A stretch of 51,974 nt of DNA, from positions 83,877 to 135,850 of the IMG/VR virus record IMGVR_UViG_3300009117_000047. One strand, written 5' to 3'. The notes under the pieces were generated by a model, which saw only the letters and a program-made list of their open reading frames with translations, was not told where the DNA came from and made no database searches. Positions 8,771-41,132 of this stretch are shown piece by piece. Source of the DNA: a virus. A program made the position numbers and the translations under genes. The number at the start of each line of letters is the position of its first letter. Position 1 is the stretch's first letter.

Positions 8771-10216
8771 ATGGTGGCTATAATCGCCAAGAAAAAGGAT
8801 AAAATTGAAATAAGTTTCGCTGATGAACCTGCATCTGAAGGTGTTACTGGTTCAATGGTGTATATTTCAACCCCCAACCATAAGATACTGGTCGAGGCGG
8901 GAATGCATCAGAGTAATAATTGTAAGGCAGATTATGAGATTAACACTAGAAATTTCAAAGAATTTAAATCTAAAGATATTGATACAATTTTTCTTTGTCA
9001 TACACATGGCGACCACACATTTTTATTGCCATTATTATATAAGAGAAATTGTAAAGCCAAGACTATTTTGCCAAACAAAAGCAAACCAATTTTAAATGCT
9101 ATGCTTAAAGATTGTGCGTTCATTAATGGTAGGGATGCAGATAGTTTAACACGGAAATATAAAAAAGAATATTTACCTCTATTTGAAGAAACAGATGTAG
9201 ATTACTGTATGGATTATGTATTTGAAGAATCTATTGGTGAAATAATCAAGATTGATGATGAAATTTCATTTAGATTCGTTCCATCTGGGCATATTCCTTT
9301 TGCTTGCCAATTAGAATTATTCATTACTGTGAATAATCATACAACTAAAATTCTATATACAAGTGACATTGGGAACATCGAATTACGTCAGCCATTTACA
9401 GAGAAATTTGAGCCTGTGAGTAAAAGTTCAATCGTAATAGCAGAAAATACCTACGGTGGGCGTACAGGTCTGCAAACTGGCAAAAAAGAGCGTCAGAATG
9501 ACTTAGACAAGATTAAGTCTATCGTAGAAAATCAAGTCATTGAACGTCACGGAAGAGTTTTAATTCCTGTTTTTGCACAAACAAGATGCCAAGTAATTGC
9601 TTGGTATTTATATGAACTATTTAAAGACGATGAAAATTTTAATTATAAAGTATATGTAGATAGTCCTCTTTGTTGTAAGGTATTTGAATTATATAGCCAG
9701 TTATTAGAGGGAGAAGAAAAAGAAAAAATTGATGCTTTAATGACATGGGATAAATTAGTGTTGGTTAAAGATGCAGAAGAAAGTAAGGCTTTAGTGCAAT
9801 CTAAAGAGCCTTGTATTTTGTTAAGTAGCAGTGGCATGGCGCACAGCGGAAGAATCGTGCATCATATCAAGTCGTTAATTAGCAATCATAATGCAACTAT
9901 TTTATTTGTTGGTTATGCTTCACCTTATACTTTAGCTGGCAAATTAAAGGACAGCAAACAGAAAACTATCACTATTGATACAAAAGTTTATCCAATCAGA
10001 TGTAGTTCATACTCATTGAAATCTATGAGTTCTCATATTAACCACGATTCTATGTTGGAATATTACTCTAGTATTCGTGCTGATAAAATTTACTTACATC
10101 ATGCGGATATGAACGACAAATTGAGTTTTAAGGAAGAACTAAATGAAGTATTAAGGCAAAAACTACAGACTACTAAGGTTATTGCTGTAAACAGTAGCAC
10201 AAAAATTTCAATTTAG
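8771..10216 (+). CDS. Metallo-beta-lactamase / beta-CASP family ribonuclease
   Basis: HTHGDH metal motif, GH, YTSD, ENTYG, SSGMAHSGR, SSH motifs. True start may be ATA/ATC at 8780/8783 behind GGTGG. Confidence 0.85.
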   Translation: MVAIIAKKKDKIEISFADEPASEGVTGSMVYISTPNHKILVEAGMHQSNNCKADYEINTRNFKEFKSKDIDTIFLCHTHGDHTFLLPLLYKRNCKAKTILPNKSKPILNAMLKDCAFINGRDADSLTRKYKKEYLPLFEETDVDYCMDYVFEESIGEIIKIDDEISFRFVPSGHIPFACQLELFITVNNHTTKILYTSDIGNIELRQPFTEKFEPVSKSSIVIAENTYGGRTGLQTGKKERQNDLDKIKSIVENQVIERHGRVLIPVFAQTRCQVIAWYLYELFKDDENFNYKVYVDSPLCCKVFELYSQLLEGEEKEKIDALMTWDKLVLVKDAEESKALVQSKEPCILLSSSGMAHSGRIVHHIKSLISNHNATILFVGYASPYTLAGKLKDSKQKTITIDTKVYPIRCSSYSLKSMSSHINHDSMLEYYSSIRADKIYLHHADMNDKLSFKEELNEVLRQKLQTTKVIAVNSSTKISI

Positions 10217-10227
10217 GTGGTGTTTGT

Positions 10228-10467
10228 ATTAAAAGAAATTATTTACTAACAGGTTTATTATTTGGTTTAGCATTGCCGTTATTTGAAGGACTGGTAGATT
10301 TAGGACTAAACTGGATTGAAGTTGCAAAAGTTAAACCATTAAAGAAAATTACTATTGGAAATCAAGAAATTGCCGATTTACAAGAAGAAAATACATATCA
10401 AGAAAAACAACCTCTTATTGGATTCCGTTATGAACCAGAGGAAGAATATTATGAAGATGAAGAATAA
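10228..10467 (+). CDS. Small protein with hydrophobic N-terminus and acidic tail, probable ATT start
   Basis: RBS AGGTGG 7 nt before ATT 10228, in frame with track ORF 10273..10467. Confidence 0.6.
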   Translation: MKRNYLLTGLLFGLALPLFEGLVDLGLNWIEVAKVKPLKKITIGNQEIADLQEENTYQEKQPLIGFRYEPEEEYYEDEE

Positions 10468-10593
10468 TTTTTTATATATTTTTTATTTTCTGAATTTTGC
10501 ATATACTTTCTCATTAAATATTATAACAGATTAAAAGTAAAGTACAATGTAAGAAATAACTAAAAATTTAACCTATTTGGAGGATTATATTAT

Positions 10594-10827
10594 ATGGCAC
10601 AAGCACTAACATATAAAAGAACAACTACTGACAAACTTACAATCAAAGGCTTGCTATCGGACGATGCTACTATTGTAACTATCAAAGTTAAAGAAAATGA
10701 CAAAGAAGTAGACAAAGAAATTACTATTAAAGATTATTTCGATAACTTTGCAGGTGAAATGGTTGAAATTTCGATTGGAAATAAGACAGAAGAAAATTTA
10801 GTAGACTCCCCTACTTCTGAGGAATAA
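10594..10827 (+). CDS. Small acidic phage protein (position and size resemble SPbeta YonK)
   Basis: RBS GGAGG; 77 aa; just upstream of the phosphoesterase. Confidence 0.65.
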   Translation: MAQALTYKRTTTDKLTIKGLLSDDATIVTIKVKENDKEVDKEITIKDYFDNFAGEMVEISIGNKTEENLVDSPTSEE

Positions 10828-17508: not shown

Positions 17509-19032
17509 ATGGAAGTTGTAAATAATTTATTTGTCGCAACAACATATGAAATAGATACTACGTTTGATTCTGAAAAATTCATTAAACTTAGAGTTAGAGT
17601 TTGTCATGATGGAGTAAATCCAAATAATAGTAATTTTAATTTAGAGAATATAGAAAAAGCTAAAAATTCTATTTTAAATATTCCCATATTGGCATTTTTA
17701 TATTTTGACGAAGAAGGAAACCCTCAATTTGGAAGTCATGAAATGCATTTGGAAGTTGATAAAACAAACAAAGATGAAATTAAATTAATTTATGATGAAA
17801 TTCCAGTAGGCTTAGTTCCAGAAAGTTGCAATTATGAAATAAAAGAATTTAATGGTAGGAATTATGTTTATGTCGATGCTTATGTTTGGAAAAACTATAG
17901 CAACTATGTTGAAGATGTGATTGCTAGAGATAAAGAGTTAAACGTCTCAATGGAGATAGACGTAAACGAGTATAAATATAACAAAGAAATAAATAGTTTC
18001 GACATTGTAGATTATAAATATACTGCTATCACGCTACTTGGCAATGACGTAGGAACTGGGATGATTGACGCAAAAGCTAAAACTTATAATTTTAGCAATG
18101 AAGAAAAAAATGACAAATTTAATGAATTAAAACAAGAATTGGAAAAAGAAATTATTTTTAGCAACAAATTTTCAGAAAAAGGAGGTAAAAAAGATTTGGA
18201 CGAAAAATTAGAACTATTGAAAAAATTTAATTTAGATGTAAATTCTATTGATTTTTCTTTAGAAGATTTTTCTTTGGAAGATTTAAACGATAAATTGGAA
18301 AAAGAATTTAATGAAAGCAAACCACAAGAAACAGTTTTATTTTCTACAACAGTCAATCAAAAAAGAGAAATTTTAAGAAACTCGTTGGATGACAAAATTA
18401 TAAAAGATGAGAACGGCAATGTAATTGAAGAAGTGTGGTATTGGGTAGAAGATTTCGATGACAAATATGTTTATGTAGAGAATTATCATTGGAAAATCAA
18501 TGAAGGAAGTGATGTTAAATACGGAAGATTTATGTATTCCTTTGATGAATCAACAATGACCGCAACCATCACAAGTGATTTTGAAGAAATGGTTAAAGTT
18601 TGGCTGACTATTGAAGAAAAAAATAAGTTAGACCAAGATAGAAATAATTATGAAAAATTTTTAGTTGATTTTGAAGAATATAAAAATACACATACAAAGT
18701 TAGATACTGAATTTGAAGATCTGCGACAATTTAAAGAAAATGCATTAAATGAAAAATTTGAAAATGGCGTAAAAGGTATTTTTGATAACTTTTCAATTAG
18801 ATTAAAAGATAGCGATGAATTCGCTGAATTAAAAGAAAATTATAAAAACTTTTCTTTGGAGGAAATCGAAACGAAATGTTTCTGTATGGTTGGTAAGCTT
18901 TCTGTTGAGTTTAGTGCTAAAAGCAAAAAAGACAACAGTAATGGTGTAGTTAAGTTAGGTGTTGACCACAAAGAAGACGACGAATTAGATGATGGTTATG
19001 GTGGATTACTTTCAAAGAAATATAGTAAATAA
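17509..19032 (+). CDS. Prohead protease / scaffold fusion
   Basis: HDGVNPN.S, SMEI, ITLLG..V..GM protease-like N-domain and acidic coiled-coil C-terminus; upstream of capsid genes. Confidence 0.75.
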   Translation: MEVVNNLFVATTYEIDTTFDSEKFIKLRVRVCHDGVNPNNSNFNLENIEKAKNSILNIPILAFLYFDEEGNPQFGSHEMHLEVDKTNKDEIKLIYDEIPVGLVPESCNYEIKEFNGRNYVYVDAYVWKNYSNYVEDVIARDKELNVSMEIDVNEYKYNKEINSFDIVDYKYTAITLLGNDVGTGMIDAKAKTYNFSNEEKNDKFNELKQELEKEIIFSNKFSEKGGKKDLDEKLELLKKFNLDVNSIDFSLEDFSLEDLNDKLEKEFNESKPQETVLFSTTVNQKREILRNSLDDKIIKDENGNVIEEVWYWVEDFDDKYVYVENYHWKINEGSDVKYGRFMYSFDESTMTATITSDFEEMVKVWLTIEEKNKLDQDRNNYEKFLVDFEEYKNTHTKLDTEFEDLRQFKENALNEKFENGVKGIFDNFSIRLKDSDEFAELKENYKNFSLEEIETKCFCMVGKLSVEFSAKSKKDNSNGVVKLGVDHKEDDELDDGYGGLLSKKYSK

Positions 19033-27339: not shown

Positions 27340-27381
27340 TTAAAAGCAAGATTTTATTAACATAAAAGCAGTATTTTAAAT

Positions 27382-27407
27382 AAAGAGGGTTTAATCGCCC
27401 TCTTTTT
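27382..27407 (+). terminator. Intrinsic terminator
   Basis: AAAGAGGG...CCCTCTTTTT. Confidence 0.7.
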
Positions 27408-27427
27408 GTTTGTAAAGGAAGTGAAAA

Positions 27428-28459
27428 ATGGCAAATACATTAAAACATAGTGAAGAAATAACAGACGAGATGTGGAACGAAGTCTGTGAGTTTAATCGTA
27501 ACATGGTTCAAGAGTATTTGGAAAATCAAACTCATCTTAGTGAGAAAAGTTTAGTACAGTATACATCTGCTATTAAGATTTATTTTTACTGGGTCAAAGA
27601 GAACTTAAACAATAAAAAATGTATTGATATAAAAAGTAAAGAATACGCCAAATACCAAAATTATTTAACTAGACGAGGCATGTCTGATTCTGGTATAAAG
27701 GTTAAAAAATCAGTAGTAAGTGCTTTCAATAAATTTGTTATGTTTATGTATGAGGAAGAATACCCCACTTTTAGAAATTATGTTACCAATGATATTAAGG
27801 TGGTTACTACTGGATATGTCCACAAAAAAGAGCCATTAACTCCAGAAGAATATCAGCACTTGTGCGAAGTATTAAAAGAAAGAGAGGAATGGCAAAAATT
27901 AGCATATGTTATGTTTTCATATTCAACGGGTTGTAGACGAGCAGAAGCAAGACAGTTATTAAAAGAAATTATTGATTATAAACCTCAAACCAAAATTGTT
28001 AAAATTAAAGATGATAACGGTGCGGTAAAAGAAGTTGAATCTACTGCATATAAGACACATGAAATTAGATGTAAAGGGAAGTCAGTAGTTGGAAAACCAA
28101 GAAAATTACAATTCGGACAAGATGTTATGAATGCAATGAAGAAATGGTTGGATACAAGAGGTGAAGATAATTGTCCATATGTATTTGTTGTAAAACAGAA
28201 AGATGGTACTGTAAGTCAAGTGTCTGAAGAACTTTTTAATAGTTGGTGTAATGGTTGCAAGGATTCATTTGATAAGATAGTCGGGAGGAGAGTCCATCCA
28301 CATTTATTTAGAGAGAGCCGTGCGACGAATATTGTAGTCTATGAAGGAAAATCTTTAGAAACAGCACAAAAATTATTAGGACATAACTCAAGTGAAACTA
28401 CTGCTAAACATTATGTTATTAGAGATGATGAAGATGATGCGTTTGATGCATTTGTTTAA
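27428..28459 (+). CDS. Tyrosine recombinase (SPbeta YomM-like position in the tail module)
   Basis: STGCRRAE (R), KGK (K), HPHLFRESRAT (HxxR), LLGH and HY catalytic residues. Confidence 0.9.
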   Translation: MANTLKHSEEITDEMWNEVCEFNRNMVQEYLENQTHLSEKSLVQYTSAIKIYFYWVKENLNNKKCIDIKSKEYAKYQNYLTRRGMSDSGIKVKKSVVSAFNKFVMFMYEEEYPTFRNYVTNDIKVVTTGYVHKKEPLTPEEYQHLCEVLKEREEWQKLAYVMFSYSTGCRRAEARQLLKEIIDYKPQTKIVKIKDDNGAVKEVESTAYKTHEIRCKGKSVVGKPRKLQFGQDVMNAMKKWLDTRGEDNCPYVFVVKQKDGTVSQVSEELFNSWCNGCKDSFDKIVGRRVHPHLFRESRATNIVVYEGKSLETAQKLLGHNSSETTAKHYVIRDDEDDAFDAFV

Positions 28460-28730
28460 CCCCCTTTTCCCACTTACTTCCATAGAGAAAATGCTCTTAA
28501 GAAATTTTTAAGATTTATGAATACTTTACATAACTCACCCATTTTTACAAAGCAAGCATTATAACATATTTCTACAATAATCTACAAGAAATGGCAAAAT
28601 TGACAACTTTCATGGTAAAAATATTATATAAACAAAATTAACAACACTCGTGGCATAATTTACCTGTAGAAACAAAGCAACTTCATCATTTACTATGTAT
28701 TACATATTACACATTTTTAATACATAGGAG

Positions 28731-28943
28731 ATGAGAATGAAAAAGACTAATAAATTGCAAGAAATAATGGGTAAAAAAGACTTAAGTCTTAGACAACTAG
28801 CAAGAATGTCTGGTATAAGTTTTGTTACTATTAGCAAGATTGAAAAATGTGAGGAAGATCCAAAACAATCTACTATGATTGCAATTAGTAAAGCCTTAAA
28901 AATGAAAGTGTGCGATGTTTTTAATTTAGATTGGCGTAAATAG
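28731..28943 (+). CDS. XRE/Cro-like HTH regulator
   Basis: LSLRQLARMSGISFVTISKIE...P...IAISKAL; TTGACA at 28600 upstream. Confidence 0.88.
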   Translation: MRMKKTNKLQEIMGKKDLSLRQLARMSGISFVTISKIEKCEEDPKQSTMIAISKALKMKVCDVFNLDWRK

Positions 28944-28968
28944 TTTAAATTAAAATGGGGGCGTTTGT

Positions 28969-29142
28969 ATGAGAAAAGTAATAATTAGAGTAACGGGGTA
29001 TGTAGAAGATATTATGGGGACAACGATAATAGAAGAGGTAAACAGAGGTACATATGATGAGGCTATAAGTTTTATAAGAACTCATCCGCACAACAATATA
29101 ACGTGGAAAATCAAACCAGTGGTCAATGATTTATTCATATAA
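28969..29142 (+). CDS. Small hypothetical protein, 57 aa
   Basis: ATG behind GGGGG; MRKVIIRVTGYVEDIMG...; below the track cutoff. Confidence 0.55.
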   Translation: MRKVIIRVTGYVEDIMGTTIIEEVNRGTYDEAISFIRTHPHNNITWKIKPVVNDLFI

Positions 29143-29167
29143 TTTTATTTACAAAATCATATAAGAT

Positions 29168-29258
29168 AAAAGAGTCATTTTATCTGCAAAATAGCACTTA
29201 GAAAACCTTGATTTTACAGGGTTTTGTGAATGTCATTTTGGATAAGATGGCTCTTTTT
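29168..29258 (+). terminator. Long hairpin / terminator upstream of the tape measure gene
   Basis: AAAAGAGTCATTTTATCT pairs with GGATAAGATGGCTCTTTT (18 bp including G-U); inner stems close on AAAACC...GGTTTT. Confidence 0.6.
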
Positions 29259-29296: not shown

Positions 29297-30505
29297 ATGA
29301 GCAATCTTTTCGAGATGCTTTTGAAAGTTGGTTTTGATAAAAATTCCGCTAATGCAGAATATCAAAAATTAATTACCGAATTAAAGAAAAATAAATTTGA
29401 AGTAAAGCCTGATATTAACTACGCAAAATCCAAACAAGAAATAGGAAAACAAGTTGCCGATATTGCGAAGATATTTAAAGATGGGTTAAACATAGACGAT
29501 AAGTCTGCTAATAGGTATGCGAAAAGTTATTATAACGAAGTAGTTAAAGGTATCAAGTCTGTTCAAACAGAACAATCTAAACAATTATTACTCGCTAATA
29601 ATATTAAAGCAACGATGTCTCTAGGAAAGCTATCAACAGATTTTTCAAAGGTATCTGCCGATTATAATGGACTATCCAACAAGACTAATTCGCTAGAAAC
29701 ATCGTTCCAGAATCTAAAGCAGTTAAAAACTCAGTTTGAAAACTCAGGTAACAATCAGCAATTGGTTACTAATTATGAAAAATATAGTTCAAGTTTGCAA
29801 GCAGTTCAAAATCAGATTAAACAAATTAATATCGCCAATCAAGCTCTCAACAAAACGGATGCGTTTAGTAGAAATAAAAGTAGTGCTATAAGCAAGATAA
29901 ACTCTTTTATTAAAGAAAACTCTAATTTAACACAAAGTTCAATAGAAAAACTTAACAACCTTGCAACAGCTATGGAGTCTGCTGGCAATCCTAACGCTTT
30001 AAAAAACTTAACAAATGAATCCAACAATTTACAAAGAAGCCTTAAAGCCGCTGGAGAAACTGGTAGAAATTTCGGTGATGAGATGAAAAACAACTTCAAG
30101 AAGTTTTCTACTTGGGTTGGAGCATCAGCTATTTTCTTTGGGGTTCAAAGAGCTATTAAAGGCGTAGTGTCTAATGTAATTGAATTAGATACGGCTATGA
30201 CTTCTCTTTATAAGGTAACTGACGAAACAGATGCAAAGTATAATTCATTCTTACAAAACGCTTATAAGAGTTCACAAAAGTTAGGTCAATCAGTTACTAA
30301 TATAGTAGAACAAACTGCTCAGTGGGCAAAATTAGGTTATGGAGTTGATGATGCAGCTAAATTAGCTGAAATATCTAGTGTATATTCTAACGTTGGTGAA
30401 GTTGATAATCAAACCGCTGTAAAAGATATCGTAACGTCAATGAAGGCATATGGGATAGCCAGCTCTGAAGCTATTAAAATTATTGACTCATATAATAAGT
30501 TGGGT
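29297..30505 (+). CDS. Tape measure protein, exon 1 (403 codons)
   Basis: TP901-type TMP core (ELDTAMTSLYKVTD...WAKLGY...YNKLG); ends at the group I 5' splice site GGT|. Confidence 0.88.
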
Positions 30506-32048
30506 AAATTTGTTGCCCATATATGTAGTAATACATATTTAGCAAGTAGCTATAACGGTTAAAGTCGTATGGGAACGATAAGACCGTGGAAAGATTTATT
30601 AAAGTGTTGAAATATAAAAATAACAAGGAGATATGATTGAGAAAAGAACAATTTTTAAATTATAAAGAGAAAATTACATTTTGTAACAAATGCCAACAAA
30701 ATTTACATATTGATAATTTCAATTATGAAAAAATAAGGCTCAATGGGACAGGAGTTTGTAGGGCTTGTGAGTGGATAGCCGCACATAAAGAAAAAATCAA
30801 TAATTCTACTTATGATGAAAACGTTTTGAAAATAATAGTGCATCAAATCTTTGAAAACGAGTCGTTAAAAATTAACAATCTGGTAAATATTATAAAAATT
30901 GATTTAGATACAATTATCGACATGATAGAATATTTAAAAATTGGTAATAAACATTATTATGTAGATGTTCCATGTGAAGCTTGTAATAAATCAGTTACTG
31001 TCAATCCAGCAAAATATAAATCAAATAAAAATATCTATTGTTCACAAGAATGCTATTGGAATGATAAAACTAATAAAGTGGATAAAGGTAAGGATAGCGT
31101 ATATTATAATAGAATTAAAACTACATGTTCAAATTGCGGAAAAGAAATAGAAATTATTCCATCGCAGTACGATATTATGAATAGGTATAACGATAATCAT
31201 AACTTTTGTTCTCAGAAATGTTATTGGATATATAGAGGAAAGTATTATATAAATGAAAAATCTAATACTTATAATATGAAAATTTCAGAAGATGTTAAAA
31301 ATAGAATGAGAGAAGATTTCGTTAAAAGAATGAGTGGATTAAATAGGCTTAATACAAAACCACAAAAAATTGTTGATGATTTACTAGATGAACTGAATAT
31401 TAAGTATGAAAGAGAATATCCGATTAAGTATTATTCAATTGATAATTATTTAGTTGAGTATAATCTAATGATTGAAGTAATGGGAGATTATTGGCATGCA
31501 AATCCAAATAGATATAATGAAAATAAGTACTCATTAAACAAAATTCAAATGAATGGAATACATAGAGATAAACTTAAACATTCTTATATTTTAAATCATG
31601 AAAATATCGAGATATTATATTTATGGGAATATGATTTAGTTCACGACCCTCAGAAATGTAAAGAATTAATAGATAAATATATTAAAAGTAATGGTGTTTT
31701 GTCAGATTATCATTCATTAAATTATAAAATTATTGATTCTTTACTCACGTGTTGTAAAACAATTGTGCCGTATCAAAACAAAACGGCAGATGAATATAGA
31801 CATTTATTAAAAAACGTAATTTAACAAACACTTTAATAAAAATCCCTAGAGACTGTAATACTTGTTATGGTAACATAATAAGTTTCGCTACTCCCCTACT
31901 TTCATAAAATATGATTGAGGGTGAAGATCCAGTCCGACCTCACACAATAATCCCAAATAAAGAAATGTGAGAGTATGCCAGAAATGACATACCGCCATAT
32001 TAATTATGGTCAGTAGCTATTTTAAATAATAGTGAAAGTAACAGAATG
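30506..32048 (+). ncRNA. Group I intron 1 in the TMP gene (1543 nt, endonuclease-containing)
   Basis: P1 TGGGT/GCCCA with U-G at the splice site; P10 AAATTTGTT pairs with exon 2 AACGAGTTT; P7 GACTG (31851)/CAGTC (31930); terminal G 32048; in-frame join YNKLG|NEFATS. Confidence 0.92.
30637..31824 (+). CDS. Intron-encoded homing endonuclease: Zn-finger repeats plus Vsr/DUF559-like PD-(D/E)XK domain
   Basis: Repeated CxxC...YCSxxC modules, then IDNYL...IEVMGDYWH...RD..K...LYLWE. Looped out by TTTATTAAAGTGTT / AACACTTTAATAAA. Confidence 0.8.
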   Translation: MRKEQFLNYKEKITFCNKCQQNLHIDNFNYEKIRLNGTGVCRACEWIAAHKEKINNSTYDENVLKIIVHQIFENESLKINNLVNIIKIDLDTIIDMIEYLKIGNKHYYVDVPCEACNKSVTVNPAKYKSNKNIYCSQECYWNDKTNKVDKGKDSVYYNRIKTTCSNCGKEIEIIPSQYDIMNRYNDNHNFCSQKCYWIYRGKYYINEKSNTYNMKISEDVKNRMREDFVKRMSGLNRLNTKPQKIVDDLLDELNIKYEREYPIKYYSIDNYLVEYNLMIEVMGDYWHANPNRYNENKYSLNKIQMNGIHRDKLKHSYILNHENIEILYLWEYDLVHDPQKCKELIDKYIKSNGVLSDYHSLNYKIIDSLLTCCKTIVPYQNKTADEYRHLLKNVI

Positions 32049-32450
32049 AACGAGTTTGCAACTTCAGCCGCAGATATTGGTGAAGGCTTAAGAAATTCTG
32101 CATCTGCTTTAGCGTTAGCAGGTAACGACATTAATCAATCAATGGCTATGATTACTGGCGGTGCTGAAATAATGCAAGATGCAGGAGAAATGGGAAATGC
32201 TGTAAAAATTTTAAGTATGCGTTTGCGGGGAATGAAGGGTGAATTAGAAAGCATTGGCGAAGAGTACGAAAATGTAGAATCTATTAGCAAAATTCAGACC
32301 CAAATTTTAAACAGAACAAAAGGTACTGTCAATATTTTCGACGACGCAGGAAATTTTAAAAGCACATACGAAATTATTCAAGGAATTGCTAAAGTTTGGA
32401 ATGATATTTCTCAAGTAGACCAAGCAAGTTTGCTAGAAATTATAGCTGGT
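32049..32450 (+). CDS. Tape measure protein, exon 2 (134 codons)
   Basis: NEFATSAADIGEGL...GNAVKILSMRLRG...FKSTYEI...LLEIIAG, conserved TMP core. Confidence 0.88.
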
Positions 32451-32932
32451 AGATTTTACCAGTATGTACAGAAATGTGCATAAAGAACATATTTAATTGC
32501 AGGTAAAGTGTAAAGCCTTACACCACAATATAGAGGAAACTACTATATGAAGGTACGAAAGTAGAAAAAACGTAAGGATGATATATGGTCAAAAGCCTAA
32601 GTATCTTTAACAATCACAGCTCATGCAGCGAAGCACCCTAACGTATCCCGTAGACCATACGGTACTTTAGTCGAGGGTGAACGTTCAACGACTAGATTCA
32701 TGTCGAGATTTGGACTAGAGAATAAAGGTGGAATCCTGAATATCCAAATCAATAATCGTAGGGCGCAAATTTATGGCGTGGGTGAAACTCCCTTAAATCG
32801 AAAAGGTATGACTGCTATTCTATATTTAGAATGTGGTTAAAAAATAGTCTAAACTTCTGTGGAAGCACAGAGATGTTATTATTGATATATTATAATAACT
32901 AGTGAGCGTTATTAACTCACTGAATATAATTG
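32451..32932 (+). ncRNA. Group I intron 2 in the TMP gene (482 nt, no ORF)
   Basis: P element AATTGCAGG, Q element ATGCAGCGAAG, P7 GACTA (32690)/TAGTC (32845), terminal G 32932; in-frame join IAG|KQRGN; P1 GCTGGT/ACCAGT. Confidence 0.88.
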
Positions 32933-33259
32933 AAGCAACGTGGCAACTCTATAGCCGCTCTCATCCAGTCTTTTCAATCTGGTCAAGCACAAAAAGCATT
33001 ATCCGCAGCTCAAAACTCTTCTGGTTCAGCTATGCAAGAACAAGAACGTTGGTTGAATAGTATCCAAGCTAAGCAACAACAACTTGTAGCTTCAGCTCAA
33101 GAATTTAGCAATACATTTTTATCGTCTTCAACTGTTAAAGGTTCTGTTGATGGTTTAAATTTAATTATTAGTGGACTCACAGATGTAACAAAATTATTAG
33201 GAACAATTCCTACACTTGCAACTATAGCTTTTGGAGTTATGGGAGCAAAAGGTTACGGT
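32933..33259 (+). CDS. Tape measure protein, exon 3 (109 codons)
   Basis: KQRGNSIAAL...NSSGSAMQEQERWLNSIQAK, typical TMP continuation; ends GGT| before the intron 3 core. Confidence 0.85.
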
Positions 33260-33931
33260 AAACATACACCCATATGCCCTGTTTATATTTAATATATAGC
33301 AATCGTTACATATTAAGTGTGAGCTGTCCTTGAGGGTTGGCAGTCAAGGAGTAACAGTTGTGCCATGCAAATATAAATTGAGTTTTCATATTAAATTGCA
33401 TCGGTCAGGTTAAATTGCTGGGAAGTTCTCATGAATCTTATAACTATAATACATAGTAGAAATAGTTTCTGAAAAGTAGAAAAAATCATAAGATTCGACA
33501 TATGGTGAAATAAAAGCATATTAGCGTGATGAACTAGTATGTCCTAAGTGTCATGGAAGTTTAATCAAATTCTTTCAAAGGGATGGTCAGCAGCCAGTCA
33601 CCCTACCCTACTTTGGGTAACGATGTGTGAGCATTGTACTAAAGACATATTTAGACTTGTATCTTGTACTAGGAACAATCTAATTATGGTACAGTTGGTG
33701 GAGGTTCATCGGCTTTAAGCCTCGGAGACTATCATACGAGATTGATAGTCTTTTAATATAAAGTCAGGACTACGCATGAAAAGATTAAATAAAGTGCGTA
33801 ACGGTAGTTTAAAGACTACGGTAAAATGAGTGCATTAAAAATAGTAATAACAAATTTTGACAAAATATATAGATTATTTACAATTGTTGGTATATAATGT
33901 TTATTATATTACTGATGATTGGAGACAGCAT

Positions 33932-34783
33932 ATGAATGTTGATACTAAAACTTTAAAAAATATAATAAAAGGAAATTCAATACATAATCAATGTAAAAAT
34001 CATAAACAAGTATTACGAGAATTTTTATTATTAGAAGACGAAACAATTCAATTAATTAAAGATAAAAAGTGTAAAGACGTAATACCATATATATTATGGA
34101 ATAATTTTGTAAACGATAAAGGAACTTTAGCTCCTAAAACAAAAATACAATACAAAAGATATGTATGGGGACAAAAGGTGTTTGTTGATTTTGGGGCTAC
34201 TAATATTCAAACAGAGCTATCATTCCCTCATCCAGCAATTGTTTTATTTAATTTCGCAAATACAGTAATTATAGTTCCAACAACAACTGATGATAAAACT
34301 TCAGATTTTTCAGAAGACATTGAAGAATCTATTATAAAAGTTAAAAGTGACAATGCAATATTCCCAAAGAATAGTGTTATCAATATTCATCAAATTATGT
34401 CGATTCATAAAGAAAGAATCATTAACGATTTAGGTGTTAATGTTAAAAACTATATAATGGATAAAGTAGAAATAGATAGGTTAAATGAGAATAATAGGTT
34501 TAAATTTTTTCATTATGATTCAAATTTGCTCGACTGTATAAGACTTAAGATAAATTTACAACTTAATAAAGATTATTTTGAGGATTTTTATTTAGAAAGT
34601 GCATATACTGATAATGAAATATATAAATTGAATGATGAAATCAAAAACTTAAAAGAGATAAACAAAAAACTAGAATTATGTATTGACGAAAAAACTAAAT
34701 TATGTTACAATGCAAATACAAGCAATAATTGTTATGAAGATAACTTAAACAAATGTTGCTCTATATTGTCAGCCGAAAGGTGA
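33932..34783 (+). CDS. PemK/MazF-like endoribonuclease-fold protein (intron cargo)
   Basis: WGQKVFVDFG.TNIQTELSFPHPAIVL...VIIVPTT...INIHQIMSIHKERI; ATG 33932 behind GGAG; promoter-like TTGACA at 33857 and TATAAT at 33893. Confidence 0.72.
   Translation: MNVDTKTLKNIIKGNSIHNQCKNHKQVLREFLLLEDETIQLIKDKKCKDVIPYILWNNFVNDKGTLAPKTKIQYKRYVWGQKVFVDFGATNIQTELSFPHPAIVLFNFANTVIIVPTTTDDKTSDFSEDIEESIIKVKSDNAIFPKNSVINIHQIMSIHKERIINDLGVNVKNYIMDKVEIDRLNENNRFKFFHYDSNLLDCIRLKINLQLNKDYFEDFYLESAYTDNEIYKLNDEIKNLKEINKKLELCIDEKTKLCYNANTSNNCYEDNLNKCCSILSAER
34683..34711 (+). promoter_or_regulatory. Sigma-A promoter inside the 3' end of the PemK-like gene
   Basis: TTGACG, 17-nt spacer ending TGT, TACAAT. Confidence 0.65.
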
Positions 34784-34841
34784 GACCGTTAACTTAATGC
34801 TTTAAATGATAAGGAGTAGTGGAAGTGTCCTACTCCTTTTT
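34718..34841 (+). ncRNA. Candidate small RNA (possible RNA antitoxin) overlapping the PemK-like 3' end
   Basis: Bounded by the 34683 promoter and a strong terminator; hairpins AGCAATA/TGTTGCT and GCC-GAAA-GGT; no separate ORF. Confidence 0.4.
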
Positions 34842-34878
34842 GCTTGTTTTAACACTTGTTTTTAGCAAGTGTTTTTTT
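34811..34878 (+). terminator. Tandem intrinsic terminators inside intron 3
   Basis: AAGGAGTAG...CTACTCCTTTTT and AACACTTG...CAAGTGTTTTTTT. Confidence 0.75.
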
Positions 34879-34947
34879 GTTATGTAAAACATTCAAATAT
34901 ATAACAAAATATGGTATACTAAAAATAAAATGCTATGAGGTGAAGTT

Positions 34948-35031
34948 ATGGGAGAAAAAATGGAAAAGTTTGTTTTTATTGTATGCATTGTGGACTTCAA
35001 TCTAGCAAGATGTTTCCCCTACTCAGGTTAA
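34948..35031 (+). pseudogene. Frameshifted, truncated paralog of the Zn-ribbon gene at 36510
   Basis: RBS GAGGTG; adding one A to the A6 run gives MGEKNGKVCFYCMHCG versus MSERNGKICFYCTKCG. Confidence 0.7.
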
Positions 35032-35069
35032 TCTAAAAATTTACTTTGGATTATTTTTCAAATTTTGTA

Positions 35070-35098
35070 TTGACATTACGTAACCTGTATGTTATGGT
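35070..35098 (+). promoter_or_regulatory. Sigma-A promoter of the RHH-BRO unit
   Basis: TTGACA, 17-nt spacer ending TGT, TATGGT. Confidence 0.65.
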
Positions 35099-35131
35099 AT
35101 ATACATGGTACATAAAGAAAGGTGTGATTGC

Positions 35132-35308
35132 ATGGCAGATACAAATTCTAAATCAAGAAAACGTGTAGCAACTACTGTTAATCCTGATATATGGCAAAAC
35201 TTTAAAGTAGCTTGCGTTAAAAGTCAACTTGATATGAATGATGTGTTGGAATTACTTATGCAAGCGTATTCTGATGGTGTCATTAAACTAGAAGATATTT
35301 CAGAATAA
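35132..35308 (+). CDS. Ribbon-helix-helix (CopG/Arc-like) regulator (intron cargo)
   Basis: RKRVATTVNPDIWQNFKVAC...MNDVLELLM pattern; ATG 35132 behind AAGGTG. Confidence 0.7.
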   Translation: MADTNSKSRKRVATTVNPDIWQNFKVACVKSQLDMNDVLELLMQAYSDGVIKLEDISE

Positions 35309-35433
35309 AAAAGATAACCCTCGTCACCGACCAAAGTATCAAGGGTTATCTACATAATGTAATTAAAACAATATCTGTTTTCAATTATACCAAATCTTAA
35401 AAGTTATGTCAAATATAATTTGAAAAGGATGGT

Positions 35434-36252
35434 ATGAGTATGAAAAATGAATTCGCAAATGTAATGATTTTTGAAGGTCATAATGTAGAAGTTTTTGAAT
35501 GGAATGGAAAAATATTATTTAATCCGTATCATGTAGGAAATTGTTTAGACCTTGGCGAAAGTGCTGTAAAAATGGCAATCACTAAAATGAACGGAAAACA
35601 AGTTATTAAACTTACAAACTCTAAAGTCAAAGATGTTGACTTTAGAAAACTACATAATACAGGCGAGAATTTCTTAACTGAAAGTGGAGTATATAAACTT
35701 ATTTTTAAATCTCATAAACCAGAGGCAGAGAAATTCCAAGACTGGGTAACTGATGAAGTTCTTCCTACTATTCGCAAACATGGAATATATGCTACAGATT
35801 CAACTATTGAAACTATACTAAATAATCCAGATACAATGATTGCAGTTTTGCAGGAATTAAAGAGTGAACGAGAACAGAAAATTGCTCTTCAAAAAGAAAA
35901 CACCTTATTGATTCCAGATGCTAAAATGGCTAATGATTTAATGAAATATAACGGATTATATACATTAAAAGAAATTGCAGATTTAATTGAATGTGGACGG
36001 ACAGAACTATGTACCCTACTCCGTATTGGAAAAGTGTTAAGCAAGCAATCTGGTTACAATCTTCCATTGAGAAAGTTCATAGAATCAGGTTATTTTAAAG
36101 TCAAAATACATAGCAACACCAAAGTGCCTGTTACGTTAATTGCTCCGAAAGGGTTGAAATTCATCTATAGGTTAATAAAGAAACTTGATATGACAGATGA
36201 GTTTAATTCAGATTTATTGATTTCAACATATAAAGATAGTGAGGTGGCTTAA
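35434..36252 (+). CDS. BRO-N / KilA-C phage antirepressor (intron cargo)
   Basis: FLTESGVYKLIFKSHKPEAEKFQDWVTDEVLPTIRKHGIY, NPD, C-terminal TLIAPKGLKFI. Confidence 0.9.
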   Translation: MSMKNEFANVMIFEGHNVEVFEWNGKILFNPYHVGNCLDLGESAVKMAITKMNGKQVIKLTNSKVKDVDFRKLHNTGENFLTESGVYKLIFKSHKPEAEKFQDWVTDEVLPTIRKHGIYATDSTIETILNNPDTMIAVLQELKSEREQKIALQKENTLLIPDAKMANDLMKYNGLYTLKEIADLIECGRTELCTLLRIGKVLSKQSGYNLPLRKFIESGYFKVKIHSNTKVPVTLIAPKGLKFIYRLIKKLDMTDEFNSDLLISTYKDSEVA

Positions 36253-36423
36253 ATGAAACCTCAGAAATATCTGAAAGCGATTGTATTGATGTTAGATCAC
36301 TATCATGATACAAAGTTGGTAGAAAAGAAATTTTCTATTAGTGAGTTAGAAGATGCTCGTAAGTGGCTTGCTACATATGATTATGGGAACAACGTGTGTT
36401 TATGTTATGAGATGTACATATGA
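36253..36423 (+). CDS. Small hypothetical protein, 56 aa (intron cargo)
   Basis: RBS GAGGTGG; follows the antirepressor directly; followed by a terminator. Confidence 0.6.
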   Translation: MKPQKYLKAIVLMLDHYHDTKLVEKKFSISELEDARKWLATYDYGNNVCLCYEMYI

Positions 36424-36435
36424 TTACAAAAAATT

Positions 36436-36462
36436 GAGAGTGGAACATTTCACTCTCTTTTT
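36436..36462 (+). terminator. Intrinsic terminator inside intron 3
   Basis: GAGAGTG...CACTCTCTTTTT. Confidence 0.7.
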
Positions 36463-36509
36463 ATGATGTAAAGGATGTGATATAATTAAATAAAAAAGGA
36501 GTTGGGCGC

Positions 36510-36974
36510 ATGAGCGAAAGGAATGGTAAAATTTGTTTTTACTGCACTAAATGCGGTGATTATACTTTTAATGAAGATGATTATGAATACCTTAATAGAA
36601 AATGTTATTATTGTGGTAGCGACATAAAAGAATATGATTTGAAATATTTCTTAAGTAAATATGAAGCAAATGTATTTTCGGATTTAAAAGATAACCAACG
36701 AAAAGAGTTTTTAAGATTATTATACGAAGACTTCATTATAAATAAATCAGAATTTGACGTTAATATATTTAGAGATAATGCAACATTGTCAAATTTAGAA
36801 ATCGTGTTTGACAAAAACAAACCATTGATTAAACCTAAGTGCCCATATTGTCACTCAAACGATACGCATAAAATATCTACCGCTGGAAGGATGATTTCTG
36901 GTGGATTACTTGGGTTCGGATCAGGCAAGATTGGGAAAAGTTGGCATTGTTCTACTTGCAATAGTAATTTCTAA
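36510..36974 (+). CDS. Double Zn-ribbon protein with glycine-rich segment (intron cargo)
   Basis: CTKCG...CYYCG and PKCPYCHS...GGLLGFGSGKIGKSWHCSTC; extended -10 TGATATAAT and RBS AAGGAG. Confidence 0.8.
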   Translation: MSERNGKICFYCTKCGDYTFNEDDYEYLNRKCYYCGSDIKEYDLKYFLSKYEANVFSDLKDNQRKEFLRLLYEDFIINKSEFDVNIFRDNATLSNLEIVFDKNKPLIKPKCPYCHSNDTHKISTAGRMISGGLLGFGSGKIGKSWHCSTCNSNF

Positions 36975-37043
36975 CTTGCAAGCCAAGTATAAATTATCTT
37001 TAATCAAGACCATCATCAAGTCTAGCTTATAAAAAAGATAACG

Positions 37044-40000
37044 AGTATGTTAAGCAGTTTTAAAGGTAAAGACATACTTGGCGGCATGAATAAAGAAACA
37101 TATCTTACTGAATTAGAAAATAAATTAAACGGAAATATAGTTTCATTTAATAAATGGAAGAATGCCTTACCAACAAAAGAACTCCAAGATTTTGCAACAA
37201 AAGCAAAAACGAATGGTGGAGTGATTTCTGATTTTGACTCCTACGTTAAAAAATCATCTCAAGGGTTAAAAGGTCTTTCCTCATCTTTTGGTGCAACTGC
37301 AAAATCAATAGCTTTAAACATGGGCGTAATGTTAGCTATCACATTAGCAATCAAAGGTATTGCTATGGCTTTCGATGCAGTAAATGTTACTTTCGCAGAA
37401 CAAAAAGATAAAGTAGATGGACTGACAGAAGGCTATAATAGTCTTAAAACTGAATTAGATGATTTAAAATCTAAAAATCCATCTAAATTAACTTCAAGCG
37501 AAAAAGAGAGAATGAATTATCTTGAACATAGATTAGAACTTGAAAAACAGCTACTAGATATTGAAAATAGAAAATTAGCTGATAGTGCAATTTATGGCAA
37601 GGGAGATATTACTAGCGGAGGAATTCAGGCTACAACCGCAAATTTAAATTCTGAATTTATACTAAGTGGTGGAGTCATAGATAGTAATATCGAAAAGCTG
37701 AATAATTTAAAGACTTCTTTTCAAAATCTTGATACGAGCAGTCCTAACTTTAAGCAAAGATTAGAAGACTTAAATGCTAGAGAGCAAAAAATAAATGACA
37801 CTTTAGAAGAAAGAAAAAATAAATATATTGAGCTTGAATCTGGGTATCTTAAAAATGCTGAAGATATTCGTTCATATATTGATGCTGGTGTTTATAGTAA
37901 CGACAAGAAGGCTTTAGAAGATGCAAAGTCTCTCATGGACTATAACCTAAAACAAGCTGATTTAGTAAAACAACGAATATTTGAGATTGAAGGAACTATA
38001 GGTAACGAGGACTTCTTCTCGTCTGCCGTATTTAAAACAGTTGAATCCGATTTAAAGGAATTAGCCAAACAAGGTAAATTGACCTCTGATGCTTTAGCAG
38101 ACAATAAGTATTCAGAACTAAATGAGTTGATGAAATCTTTAGGGATATCTATCGAAGATTTAGTCAAAAAACTTAATGGTGTATCAGATTCAGAGCAAGC
38201 ATTCTCCCCTCTTACATCTGCTATAAATGAATACGAAGATGCTATTTCTGCTATACCTGAAAAATTAGCTGAAATTGAAGAAATCCAAGATAAAGTTAAT
38301 GATGGTTATTCATATAGTTACGATGAGATTGAAAAATTAAGAGCGAAGTATCCAGAGTTAGAAAGTGCTATTTATCGTACTGCTGACGGATGGGGAATAG
38401 AAAAAGAAGCTGTAGATTTGTTGCATGGTTCTGTTGGTGATTTGGGTGAACAATATAAAACCGTTCAATCCGTAATGACCGAAGCATTAAATTCTGATGT
38501 AGCAACTAGACTATCTAATTTAGGTATTGAACTTGAAGGAATTAAAACAATAGCAGATGCTTATGCGGCTATTGCAGGGGCTAGACAGAAAGCAGGTGGA
38601 GCCACACCTTTATCTAATGGTGCTGCTGGAGCAACTTTGCCTTCAAAAGATGCGGATTTATCAAAATTAATAAACATTTCAGCTTATAGTCAGGATGCGA
38701 TTAATTTTGGAAAAGAAGCTGAAAGACTTTCTGCTCTCCAAGAAAAACTTAAAGATTTGCAGTCAGGTAGAGTATCGGGTGGTTCACCATCAAAATCTAA
38801 ATCATCTAAAGAAACAGAAGCATACAAAGCTCAAATTGATGCTTATGCTAAACTTCAAGCTGAACTAGACAAAATTCAAGCTGACATTTCTGCCAATGAA
38901 AAGAAATTTAATGATACAAAAGACGATAAAGAAAAAATCTATCTACTTCAACAAAGGATTGCTCTCACCCAGCAAGAACAGGTGGCACTACATAATCTCA
39001 ATAATGCAAGAGATAAAGAGATAGCTAATAACGTTAAATTATTACAGCAAAAAGGATTTGATGTTAGCTATAATCCTGATTCTAATAACTTAGAAATTAG
39101 TAATTTAGAACATTTGAATGACTTAAAAGGTAAGAATCAAGAAAAGACAAACGACCTAATTAAAGAGTATGAGGAATTAATTAAATCTACTCAATCTCTG
39201 AACGAAGAGAATAAAAAATCATCTACTTCTTGGTGGGATAGTTATTATAATTTGTCTAAGTATAAGGATGAAATTAAAGACCTTAACGAAGAAATTTATA
39301 ATAAAGAGGTAGATAATCAAGAGCACTTATTAGAATTGTTATCTTCTGTTAGTGGAACTGAATCTCAACAAATTGCCATTCGTGAAGATATGCAAAAAAG
39401 AGCATTGCAGAGAAGACAAGAGTTGATAAATGATGACTATAGTCTTCATGTTGAAGAGATCAGAAAGTTGGAAAATGACTGGAAATCTTACTATGATAAA
39501 GTTCTTGAGTTACAAAAACAACAGTTAGAAAATGAAAAAAAATTATTAGAACAGCAAAAATCTGATAGAGATTCTGCCCTCTCTGCTATCACAAGTGCAA
39601 TAGATGATGAAATTAGTAAGCTTCAAAAAGAGAAAGATGCCTTATCTGAAGCAAATGATGAGCGTGAAAGAAAGCTTAAGCTTCAAGAGTTGGAAGCTAA
39701 TGCAGAAAAAGCTCGTTCTCAAAAGACTGCTTATATTTATCGTGAGAATAAGGGTTTTACTTACGAAGCTGATCAAACTGCTATTACAGATGCTAATAAT
39801 GCTATCAATGATTATAAAGCAGAACAAGCGTTAAAAGATAAGCAAAAAGCCTTACAAGATGAAATTGATAGTCTACAAGAATATAAATCCAAATGGGAAG
39901 AAGTAGCAAATGCTGTTGAGGAACAAGAAAATAAACAAAAAGCAGCGATGTTACTTGGATCAAATTGGAAAAGTAAAATTATTGGTCAGGATACCACTGT

Positions 40001-41132
40001 TTTATCAGATTTCAAAAACGATTATATAGATGTAGAAAAATCAATTAATGAAAAAACCAAAGACATAGAAACAATTACCACAGAATTAGCTAATCATCTT
40101 GACACTGAGTTCACCAGAATTATTAAGTCATTTGAAGATATGACTAAAGCTATTGGTGGAGCATTTGGTATTGAAGTCACAGATGAGGCTAACAAAGAAA
40201 GCATCCCAACTCCTGCTTCCGAATCAAAACAAAAATCATCAACTAGCTTTTGGGATAAAATTGTTGGTAAGGTAACGGGAGTATTTGATTTATTAACAGG
40301 TAGTACGTCTAATAATACTAGCACGTTAGAAGAAAACAATACCAACTTAAAAACTTCGTCTAGCACACAAAAGACCAATACTGATGAAGTTAAGAACAAT
40401 TCAACAAACGTAAAAAGTAATAGCACTTACGTTGATGCGAATAGTACCAAATTATCCGATAATAGCTCATCTGTTGACACAAATAGTGATAACGTCGAAA
40501 CATTAAACGATACGCTGGTTACTTCGACTGACAAGATTGTTAAAGCCGCAGAAACTGTAGCAACTGCTAAAGAGTCTAAATCTGAAGATGGTGATTCTAG
40601 TTCAAGTGGTAGCTCAAGCTCCAGCAGAAGTGGCAGTAGTGTTATTGGTAAAGTTATTAGCGGAATTGGCAAAGTAATTGGTGGATTAACCAAACGTCAC
40701 TCTGGTGGTATTATTGGCGATACCTCCGATAAGTCTAAAGCGTTGTTTGAACTTTCAAACCAGAAACTTAAATCAGATGAAGAAGTTATAGTCGGACAGA
40801 GCGGAGAACTTGTTTTAACGAAAGAACAACAGAGTAATATTGTAGACAGATTGAACCAAATGTCAGCTTATGACCAATCGTTATTTTCAAGTTTATCTTC
40901 TAACTTGGGTAATTACACTGGTTATTTGCCAAACAATTTCAATGTTCCCACTGGTACAATTAGTGATTATAGCGTTAATGGTAATAGTAATAAAAACACA
41001 GTACCACAGCAAACTATTCATATTGCGAATGTAAACTTCTCAGATATTCAAGAAGTAAAACAGATTCAGGAAGCAATTCTTACGTTGCCTCAATATGTAG
41101 CACAAAAATCAACCAGTGGATACAATAGATAA
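37044..41132 (+). CDS. Tape measure protein, exon 4 (1362 aa, coiled-coil C-terminal part)
   Basis: Long coiled coil, hydrophobic TMP segment, C-terminal HSGGIIG...GELVLT motif; no SD sequence before ATG 37047, consistent with an exon. Confidence 0.82.
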   Translation, partial: SMLSSFKGKDILGGMNKETYLTELENKLNGNIVSFNKWKNALPTKELQDFATKAKTNGGVISDFDSYVKKSSQGLKGLSSSFGATAKSIALNMGVMLAITLAIKGIAMAFDAVNVTFAEQKDKVDGLTEGYNSLKTELDDLKSKNPSKLTSSEKERMNYLEHRLELEKQLLDIENRKLADSAIYGKGDITSGGIQATTANLNSEFILSGGVIDSNIEKLNNLKTSFQNLDTSSPNFKQRLEDLNAREQKINDTLEERKNKYIELESGYLKNAEDIRSYIDAGVYSNDKKALEDAKSLMDYNLKQADLVKQRIFEIEGTIGNEDFFSSAVFKTVESDLKELAKQGKLTSDALADNKYSELNELMKSLGISIEDLVKKLNGVSDSEQAFSPLTSAINEYEDAISAIPEKLAEIEEIQDKVNDGYSYSYDEIEKLRAKYPELESAIYRTADGWGIEKEAVDLLHGSVGDLGEQYKTVQSVMTEALNSDVATRLSNLGIELEGIKTIADAYAAIAGARQKAGGATPLSNGAAGATLPSKDADLSKLINISAYSQDAINFGKEAERLSALQEKLKDLQSGRVSGGSPSKSKSSKETEAYKAQIDAYAKLQAELDKIQADISANEKKFNDTKDDKEKIYLLQQRIALTQQEQVALHNLNNARDKEIANNVKLLQQKGFDVSYNPDSNNLEISNLEHLNDLKGKNQEKTNDLIKEYEELIKSTQSLNEENKKSSTSWWDSYYNLSKYKDEIKDLNEEIYNKEVDNQEHLLELLSSVSGTESQQIAIREDMQKRALQRRQELINDDYSLHVEEIRKLENDWKSYYDKVLELQKQQLENEKKLLEQQKSDRDSALSAITSAIDDEISKLQKEKDALSEANDERERKLKLQELEANAEKARSQKTAYIYRENKGFTYEADQTAITDANNAINDYKAEQALKDKQKALQDEIDSLQEYKSKWEEVANAVEEQENKQKAAMLLGSNWKSKIIGQDTTVLSDFKNDYIDVEKSINEKTKDIETITTELANHLDTEFTRIIKSFEDMTKAIGGAFGIEVTDEANKESIPTPASESKQKSSTSFWDKIVGKVTGVFDLLTGSTSNNTSTLEENNTNLKTSSSTQKTNTDEVKNNSTNVKSNSTYVDANSTKLSDNSSSVDTNSDNVETLNDTLVTSTDKIVKAAETVATAKESKSEDGDSSSSGSSSSSRSGSSVIGKVISGIGKVIGGLTKRHSGGIIGDTSDKSKALFELSNQKLKSDEEVIVGQSGELVLTKEQQSNIVDRLNQMSAYDQSLFSSLSSNLGNYTGYLPNNFNVPTGTISDYSVNGNSNKNTVPQQTIHIANVNFSDIQEVKQIQEAILTLPQYVAQKSTSGYNR

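Follow-up and report, generated by a model that had tools for sequence, protein, structure and literature searches.

Organization of the tape measure locus

The window analyzed here is a 51,974-nucleotide (nt) stretch that forms the right-hand part of the 135,850-bp provirus record IMGVR_UViG_3300009117_000047 (positions 83,877 to 135,850). It is part of a large, SPbeta-like prophage, the tape measure gene of which lies in four pieces separated by three inserts of the group I intron type. The completeness of the provirus record is estimated by CheckV at 87%. On the plus strand, positions 29297–41132 contain four long open frames, each of which resembles a piece of a tape measure protein (Table 1). 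The three inserts, as drawn in an earlier note on this DNA, are 1543, 482, and 3784 nt in length, and their sum agrees with the roughly 5.8 kb of the locus that the note had ascribed to insert sequence. Its description of the junctions is likewise borne out on the sequence: all three 5′ exons terminate with GGT, and all junctions are in phase 0. Each insert, as drawn, has G as its last base and follows T (U in the RNA).

The first junction divides the PhageMin_Tail domain (PF10145), with profile positions 3–87 matched in exon 1 and positions 87–201 in exon 2. The cut coincides with the last residues of exon 1 and the first residues of exon 2, and the domain is whole only once the exons are joined. 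The order of the exons agrees with that of uninterrupted proteins. Exon 4, which matches the tape measure protein family PHROG 4211, comprises a linker, a second hydrophobic segment, a long coiled coil, and the C-terminal region. The earlier note suggested that tail assembly could be gated by splicing efficiency and that skipping of exons could in principle shorten the tail. The exons open to skipping are the internal ones, which code for conserved domain sequence and for a hydrophobic segment.

The last three bases of intron 1 are ATG (32046–32048) and those of intron 2 are TTG (32930–32932). Because these intron ends mimic start codons, exons 2 and 3 are listed by gene-finding programs as separate open reading frames (ORFs). 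Gene callers break the tape measure gene into at least four "hypothetical proteins", and as a result such prophages are assigned the wrong tail length and the wrong set of genes.

Table 1. Coordinates of the exons, introns, and intron-encoded features of the tape measure locus (aa, amino acids)
Feature	Position	Strand	Description
Exon 1	29297–30505	+	403 aa; N-terminal half of PhageMin_Tail domain
Intron 1	30506–32048	+	1543 nt; group I intron, last base G32048
Putative homing endonuclease ORF in intron 1	30637–31824	+	395 aa; zinc-finger repeats and I-Bth0305I-like (EDxHD/Vsr-type) nuclease domain
Exon 2	32049–32450	+	134 aa; C-terminal half of PhageMin_Tail domain
Intron 2	32451–32932	+	482 nt, no ORF; group I intron with P7.1/P7.2-type insertions, last base G32932
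Exon 3	32933–33259	+	109 aa; end of conserved region and first hydrophobic segment
Intron 3, ribozyme core	33260–33835	+	about 575 nt; 5′ end of the insert
Intron 3, variable cargo	33836–36483	+	from Pfam/PHROG matches and a promoter and terminator scan
PemK/MazF-like ORF	33857–34783	+	in cargo; Pfam/PHROG
67-aa ORF	35105–35308	+	in cargo
Bro-N/KilAC anti-repressor ORF	35434–36252	+	in cargo; Pfam/PHROG
Intron 3, conserved 3′ module	36484–37037	+	last ~550 nt; zinc-ribbon ORF, hairpin, favored terminal G37037
Zinc-ribbon ORF	36510–36974	+	154 aa, two zinc-ribbon motifs; 43–54% identical in five loci
Exon 4	37038–41132 (earlier note: from 37044)	+	1364 aa with the favored 3′ splice site

Exon junctions in relatives and uninterrupted homologs

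A scan of IMG/VR with exon 2 returned 13 related loci, and the translations of the four exons were compared with the relatives by tblastn. Residue 403 of exon 1 and residue 1 of exon 2 lie on adjacent codons in four relatives (L002, L003, L004, and L008), and residue 134 of exon 2 and residue 1 of exon 3 do so in ten (L001–L009 and L013). Junctions 30505/32049 and 32450/32933 are therefore exact to the codon, and the coordinates proposed earlier for exons 1–3 stand.

Comparison with uninterrupted homologs, which had been suggested as a check on the spliced protein, thus fixes the first two junctions, whereas junction 3 is spanned only by distant proteins. No close uninterrupted homolog across junction 3 was found among viral contigs, in a protein database, or among genome and metagenome contigs; all that these searches returned was genes in split form or distantly related proteins. 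When the locus was compared with GenBank phages, megablast gave no match and tblastn gave distant tape measure proteins only. In the distant uninterrupted tape measure protein P0006 (1714 aa), exons 1–4 are matched in order, and exon 4 follows exon 3, in order, in the distant uninterrupted protein P0007 and in an uninterrupted ORF of L021 (2104 aa). In these three proteins, the exon 3 sequence, the two hydrophobic segments, and the coiled coil are part of a single chain. The distant uninterrupted proteins support the assignment of all four exons as predicted parts of one protein.

A close relative of the prophage is present in an Aminipila metagenome-assembled genome (L016). Inserts in the relatives are found after exon 1 residue 384 (L001 and L005), at junctions 2 and 3, and near exon 2 residues 34 (L012), 50 (L016), 59 (L009–L011 and L013), and 125 (L017). 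Insertions are thus densely clustered in the conserved tape measure domain, the relatives that were examined having seven or more sites between them. In L012, a relative of 39.7 kb, the Rfam group I intron family RF00028 matches the tape measure gene at 9455–9797 (71.5 bits), 10294–10742 (39.7 bits), and 17531–17823 (63.7 bits), and a further match (3399–3722, 39.2 bits) lies between two ORFs upstream. At least three introns of the L012 gene are supported by Rfam, and three or more per tape measure gene are therefore not unique to the window.

Intron 1 and its putative homing endonuclease

The internal guide sequence (IGS) of intron 1, GCCCA (30515–30519), pairs with UGGGU of the exon and places a U·G pair at the splice site. 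A partner for P10 is present at 30509–30514, the pairing being AAC(GAG) with (UUU)GUU. P3 is formed by 30546–30550 with 31887–31891, and P7 by 31851–31855 with 31930–31934. When the 3′ half of the intron is aligned across five loci, eight helices are found in which 96.3% of cells pair, and two-sided (compensatory) changes occur in 17 of 42 pairs, compared with 6.6 ± 1.8 in shuffled alignments and 0–3 when the partners are slid. P7 is present as GACUG/CAGUC and as GACUA/UAGUC, and P3, the two strands of which span the 1.2-kb ORF, occurs in three compensating versions (GUAGC/GCUAC, AUAAC/GUUAU, and ACAAC/GUUGU). P8 and P9–P9.2 covary too.

L016 contains a homologous intron at another site, the 3′ half of which is about 90% identical to that of intron 1. 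The IGS of the L016 intron is GCCAAG and faces CUUGGU in its exon, whereas GCCCA of the window intron faces UGGGU; similarly, P10 is formed by AUAUU with AAUAU in L016 and by GUU with AAC in the window. In this intron lineage, the guide sequence and P10 are adapted to whichever exon flanks the intron. With its many insertion sites, the tape measure gene offers a natural system for studying group I intron retargeting via changes in P1 and P10.

The ORF of intron 1 is placed in the loop of a long stem and is preceded by a strong Shine-Dalgarno sequence, AAGGAG. Residues 239–308 of its product match PDB entry 3r3p, named "Mobile intron protein" (E = 8e-5), and the ORF is 38% identical to that of the L016 intron. 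By homology to the catalytic domain, the product is a predicted EDxHD (I-Bth0305I-like) homing endonuclease, and intron 1 would be a mobile intron whose peripheral loop carries the gene for an endonuclease of the EDxHD type. I-Bth0305I (PDB 3r3p), itself an EDxHD-family homing endonuclease, is encoded in a Bacillus phage 0305phi8-36 group I intron. The resemblance of the intron 1 ORF to I-Bth0305I lies in the catalytic domain; its N-terminal part, in contrast, is different and longer and contains CxxC/FCS-type zinc-finger repeats.

Intron 2, a small member of a multi-site lineage

Intron 2 aligns with RF00028 from end to end (model positions 1–253; window 32440–32872), with a score of 31.2 bits and an E value of 4e-6 in a small-region search. 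P7 is formed by GACUA at 32690 with UAGUC at 32845–32849, the motifs AAUUGCAGG, GUUCAACGACUAG, and AAUAGUCU are all present, and the IGS, ACCAG (32458–32462), faces CUGGU in the exon. An intron of L001 located at a different site is 79% identical to intron 2 and scores 40.9 bits, and the same site as that of intron 2 is occupied by RF00028 introns in L010 (65.9 bits) and L012 (39.7 bits), the L012 intron having the usual U·G at the cleavage site. Altogether, close and same-site homologs of intron 2 score 40.9, 49.3, 65.9, and 71.5 bits against RF00028. Intron 2 would represent a small, ORF-less intron whose lineage is found at several (at least three) sites of the same gene in related phages.

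Two introns of this lineage, L001:7894–9943 and L010:10227–10738, apparently splice after C, with a C–G pair, and not after U, as derived from the junctions in protein alignments together with the terminal G. C at the splice-site position is a known rare exception (PMC4227781).

Intron 3: predicted ribozyme core, cargo, and 3′ module

The IGS of intron 3, GCCCUG (33276–33281), pairs with UACGGU of the exon, with U·G at the splice site. The J3/4–P4 motif AAAUUGCUGG is located at 33412, and a tentative P7 can be drawn between GUACU (33636–33640) and AGUGC (33829–33833). The core is about 90% identical in L001, L016, and L017, and the homology ends abruptly after it; exon 4, meanwhile, drifts to 46–83% protein identity. 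In the consensus fold of the core, 98.4% of cells pair, and two-sided changes occupy 15 cells versus 7.7 ± 1.8 in shuffled alignments, with compensatory ones among those in the P4–P6 helices. A custom covariance model of the P3–P6 part of the core (R1) has intron 2 as its best non-self match (32482–32671, 19.2 bits, E = 5e-5) and also matches introns in L017 and in L012 (E = 0.01), the latter being RF00028-positive. At the intron 3 site, L010 has a different core in which GCCCAG faces CUGGGU, and the exon–IGS pair at position −5 is A–U for intron 3 of the window and U–A for the L010 intron, a compensating change. By these comparisons, the lineage of intron 3 appears to be related to that of intron 2. 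Intron 1 is unrelated to either. Junction 3 is also occupied in L004 (10733–11230) and L008 (10736–11662), by short (0.5–0.9 kb), ORF-less inserts of another sequence type.

Searches with Pfam and PHROG, which identify the PemK-like and Bro-N/KilAC ORFs of the cargo, find no transposase in intron 3. The window cargo is without counterpart in L001, L016, L017, and L010, in which entirely different genes are present. Promoter-like sites are located directly after the core (33857–33884) and at 34683–34711, and the ORFs inside the introns have strong Shine-Dalgarno sequences (AAGGAG). On the minus strand, immediately upstream of the anti-repressor ORF but directed away from that ORF, is a perfect TTGACA-17-TATAAT promoter-like site with an extended TG (35384–35412); this site overlaps a weak match to the Rfam family ctRNA_pT181 (35299–35395, 31.5 bits, E = 0.49).

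The zinc-ribbon ORF of the 3′ module has no sequence match in Pfam, PHROG, or PDB, and Foldseek matches to its AlphaFold model (mean predicted local distance difference test score 70.7) are limited to generic zinc ribbons; the protein may be the intron's own. The module also contains a hairpin (37007–37023) with compensatory changes at three positions among the five loci. The RNA elements at both ends of intron 3 are under selection.

The probable 3′ splice site of intron 3

The 3′ end of intron 3 had been placed at G37043, such that exon 4 would begin at 37044 and the spliced gene would encode 2008 aa. Three of five loci retain this G, L016 having A and L019 having T in its stead, whereas G37037, which is also in phase 0 and lies downstream of an in-frame TAG (37023–37025), is invariant across the five homologous loci. 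If the intron ends with G37037, the substitution in L016 silently converts an ACG codon to ACA, and the window residues I-T-S-M-L-S line up with L019 residues I-S-D-I-I-G, Ile being found in L019 where the window has Met37047. The exon would then open with AUA, and these three bases pair with the UAU that immediately precedes the IGS, the canonical position of P10. We place the splice at 33259/37038 because G37037 is invariant, the L016 change is silent, and the AUA–UAU pairing is available. Exon 4 thus most likely starts at 37038 and is 1364 aa long, for a total of 2010 aa; the start given in the earlier note, whose description of the locus is otherwise essentially right, is probably 6 nt off.

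The two placements predict different joined sequences, GGT/ATAACGAGT with the 37038 start and GGT/AGTATG with the 37044 start. Splicing at 37043/37044 would have in its favor a sequence context, AUAACG/A, like the 3′ ends derived for related L001 and L010 introns, and a possible 6-bp pairing of exon bases 37045–37050 with intron bases 33262–33267. Given the replacement of G37043 in two loci in which G37037 is retained, and the failure of the first three exon bases to pair with UAU 5′ of the IGS when 37043 is last, we consider this placement distinctly unlikely.

Probable splicing of the tape measure transcript

On balance, we favor a tape measure gene whose transcript would undergo three splicing events and yield a single protein of about 2010 aa. 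For intron 3 taken by itself, splicing in cis is quite probable. The insertion points, the conservation and covariation of the RNAs, the link of intron 2 to the Rfam group I family, and the homology of the endonuclease are established by the comparisons above, and we infer that all three inserts splice in vivo. The assignment of the inserts to group I, made in the earlier note, is upheld for inserts 1 and 2 and largely upheld for insert 3, their splicing being predicted from sequence. At every insert, the 5′ exon ends in U and pairs with the IGS, with U·G at the splice site in introns 1 and 3 and U–A in intron 2. No Shine-Dalgarno sequence precedes ATG37047 at the head of exon 4, and the same is true at all five loci (window, L001, L016, L017, and L019). 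In L019, Ile replaces the only candidate start Met of exon 4. Both halves of the gene are intact in five diverged phages.

A route for transcription of so long an insert is suggested by the YonO-type two-barrel RNA polymerase (PF05183) encoded in the window at 4442–7360. YonO is highly processive, and the SPbeta late genes are transcribed by it as one operon (PMC5467207); the IStrons, moreover, are reported to splice as one unit of intron plus insertion sequence (IS) element (PMC4227781). The late transcript is probably made by the YonO-type polymerase of the phage and, we infer, runs through the terminator-like hairpins that lie inside intron 3.

In the mechanism that we propose, the whole ribozyme core of intron 3 would be contained in the first ~575 nt, an IStron-like build. 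The core would be followed by about 2.6 kb of exchangeable, self-transcribed accessory genes, including those for a MazF-like toxin and an anti-repressor, after which the conserved 3′ module, with its zinc-ribbon ORF and hairpin, would present the 3′ splice site, most likely G37037. More tentatively, and with some doubt as to the whole, intron 3 could be a working group I intron that gives accessory genes a sheltered and exchangeable place within an essential late gene, the cargo being transcribed independently and the tape measure protein being made only via read-through of 3.8 kb by a terminator-insensitive YonO-type polymerase and joining by the ribozyme. If so, the insertion, exchange, and expression of cargo would be cost-free to the phage, and the assembly of tails would depend on the polymerase that the phage itself encodes. 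Should intron 3 splice, its ribozyme would let kilobases of swappable accessory genes sit in an essential structural gene.

Several observations weigh against a gene spliced three times. Neither intron 1 nor the core of intron 3 has a match to RF00028 or to any other Rfam family, small-region searches included, and the score of intron 2 is under the RF00028 gathering score of 50 bits. The splice-site U of intron 2 faces A in place of the near-universal G, P1 of intron 3 contains one C–C mismatch, and inspection of intron 3 by eye found no convincing P3 or P9 stem that closes the cargo. Two sense-strand terminator-like hairpins (34851–34873 and 36436–36457) are located inside intron 3, and the cargo of some relatives includes genes on the opposite strand. 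In L004, the downstream half of the gene has its own ribosome-binding site (AGGTGA, followed by ATG), and a true split of the gene may exist in that phage. The provirus is 87% complete by the CheckV estimate, so decay is possible.

Many of these features would fit a gene in which splicing removes inserts 1 and 2 but leaves insert 3 in place, yielding two polypeptides: one made from exons 1–3 with a 10-aa read-through tail, and a second made from exon 4 with ATG37047 as its start, the core of insert 3 being a relic or serving another purpose. The promoters, hairpins, and whole genes inside insert 3, the opposite-strand genes of the relatives, the ribosome-binding site in L004, and the silence of RF00028 on insert 3 are all compatible with such an arrangement, as is the presence of an ATG three codons into the open frame. 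That ATG, however, is without a Shine-Dalgarno sequence in the window, L001, L016, L017, and L019, and is replaced by an Ile codon in L019. Moreover, with exon 4 drifting, a relic would not be expected to stay about 90% identical and to show compensatory changes. In addition, the 3′ hairpin covaries, and the two hydrophobic segments reside in one chain in the uninterrupted homologs. We therefore regard the production of two polypeptides as unlikely. The internal hairpins and promoters would also favor separate transcripts, one with exon 3 and the core and another with the 3′ module and exon 4, that are subsequently joined in trans, and homology among the relatives does break cleanly between the core and the 3′ module. 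Trans-splicing is nonetheless highly improbable, as a conserved long pairing between the 5′ and 3′ parts was not found and the processive YonO-type polymerase of the phage could read through the insert. It is also very unlikely that the prophage is defective and its tape measure gene dead, broken by mobile elements that no longer splice. The incompleteness of the provirus record and the U–A pair of intron 2 could be taken in this sense, but the four exons are open and in phase, the same architecture recurs in several diverged relatives, and the endonuclease ORF, like the intron RNAs, is intact.

Two other classes of intervening element were considered and rejected: inteins, owing to in-frame stops in every insert, and group II introns, owing to the lack of both a reverse transcriptase ORF and an Rfam match.

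Comparison with known interrupted phage genes

The presence of three introns in one tape measure gene had been put forward as notable, which was overstated: introns in tape measure genes and a phage gene with three introns have both been published. In prophages of the Bacillus cereus group, group I introns of subgroups IA1/IA2 (TMP-IVS1, IVS2, and IVS3) occupy three sites of the tape measure gene, a single gene having at most two (Tourasse and Kolsto 2008, PMC2504315). P1 and the IGS of these introns are adapted to the site, and different introns share one site (PMC2504315). Retargeting and site sharing are likewise seen here, in intron 1 compared with its L016 homolog, in the occurrence of the intron 2 lineage at no fewer than three sites, and in the two cores at junction 3. 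Unlike the B. cereus-group genes, the gene described here has three introns and belongs to phages of clostridial hosts, and one of its introns is 3.8 kb long with cargo other than an endonuclease.

The tape measure gene of the Vibrio phage ICP1 has an insert with an HNH endonuclease gene, the splicing of which was demonstrated by RNA sequencing and reverse transcription PCR (Barth et al. 2023, PMC10448857), and tape measure genes have been termed "frequently interrupted" (PMC10448857). An endonuclease-bearing insert in this gene is thus common to ICP1 and the window; ICP1, however, has one or two inserts with an HNH enzyme, whereas the enzyme here is of the EDxHD type, and a cargo-laden intron is not reported for ICP1. 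Another tail gene, orf142 of Staphylococcus phage Twort, which encodes the tail tube, has three group I introns and undergoes exon skipping, of the kind proposed in the earlier note, as the work of Landthaler and Shub (1999) is cited in PMC3073962 and PMC11878797. The gene orf142 resembles the gene studied here in being a phage tail gene with three group I introns and differs in that its introns are small and mutually similar, whereas intron 1 of the window is unrelated to introns 2 and 3.

The closest published analogue of intron 3 is the IStron, as exemplified by CdISt1 and BcISt1 (Tourasse et al. 2014, PMC4227781), in which a group I ribozyme is likewise joined to a long stretch of foreign genes, the entire unit being spliced out (PMC4227781). 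Intron 3 may function in a similar way but is not an IStron because a transposase is absent, with no IS200/IS605/IS607 transposase detected by Pfam. It differs further in that its cargo consists of accessory genes for which separate promoters and terminators are predicted and in that it occupies one fixed site in a phage gene, whereas IStrons are scattered across the genome. In the literature searched, no accessory-gene bay inside a phage group I intron was found described. The four-exon tape measure gene itself is thus of an already-known type, and it is the cargo-laden intron 3 that departs from the published examples.

Integrase region upstream of the tape measure gene

Genes for an integrase (27428–28459) and a helix-turn-helix (HTH) regulator (28731–28943) occupy a region (27341–29182) that separates the tail genes from the tape measure gene. 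The pair is flanked by TAAAA-N6-TTTTA sites at 27341, 27363, and 29167. Six such sites are present in the window, versus 1.45 expected, and none is located inside intron 3. At the equivalent place, L016 has an HTH gene (PF01381/PF13560) preceded by an ORF of 335 aa.

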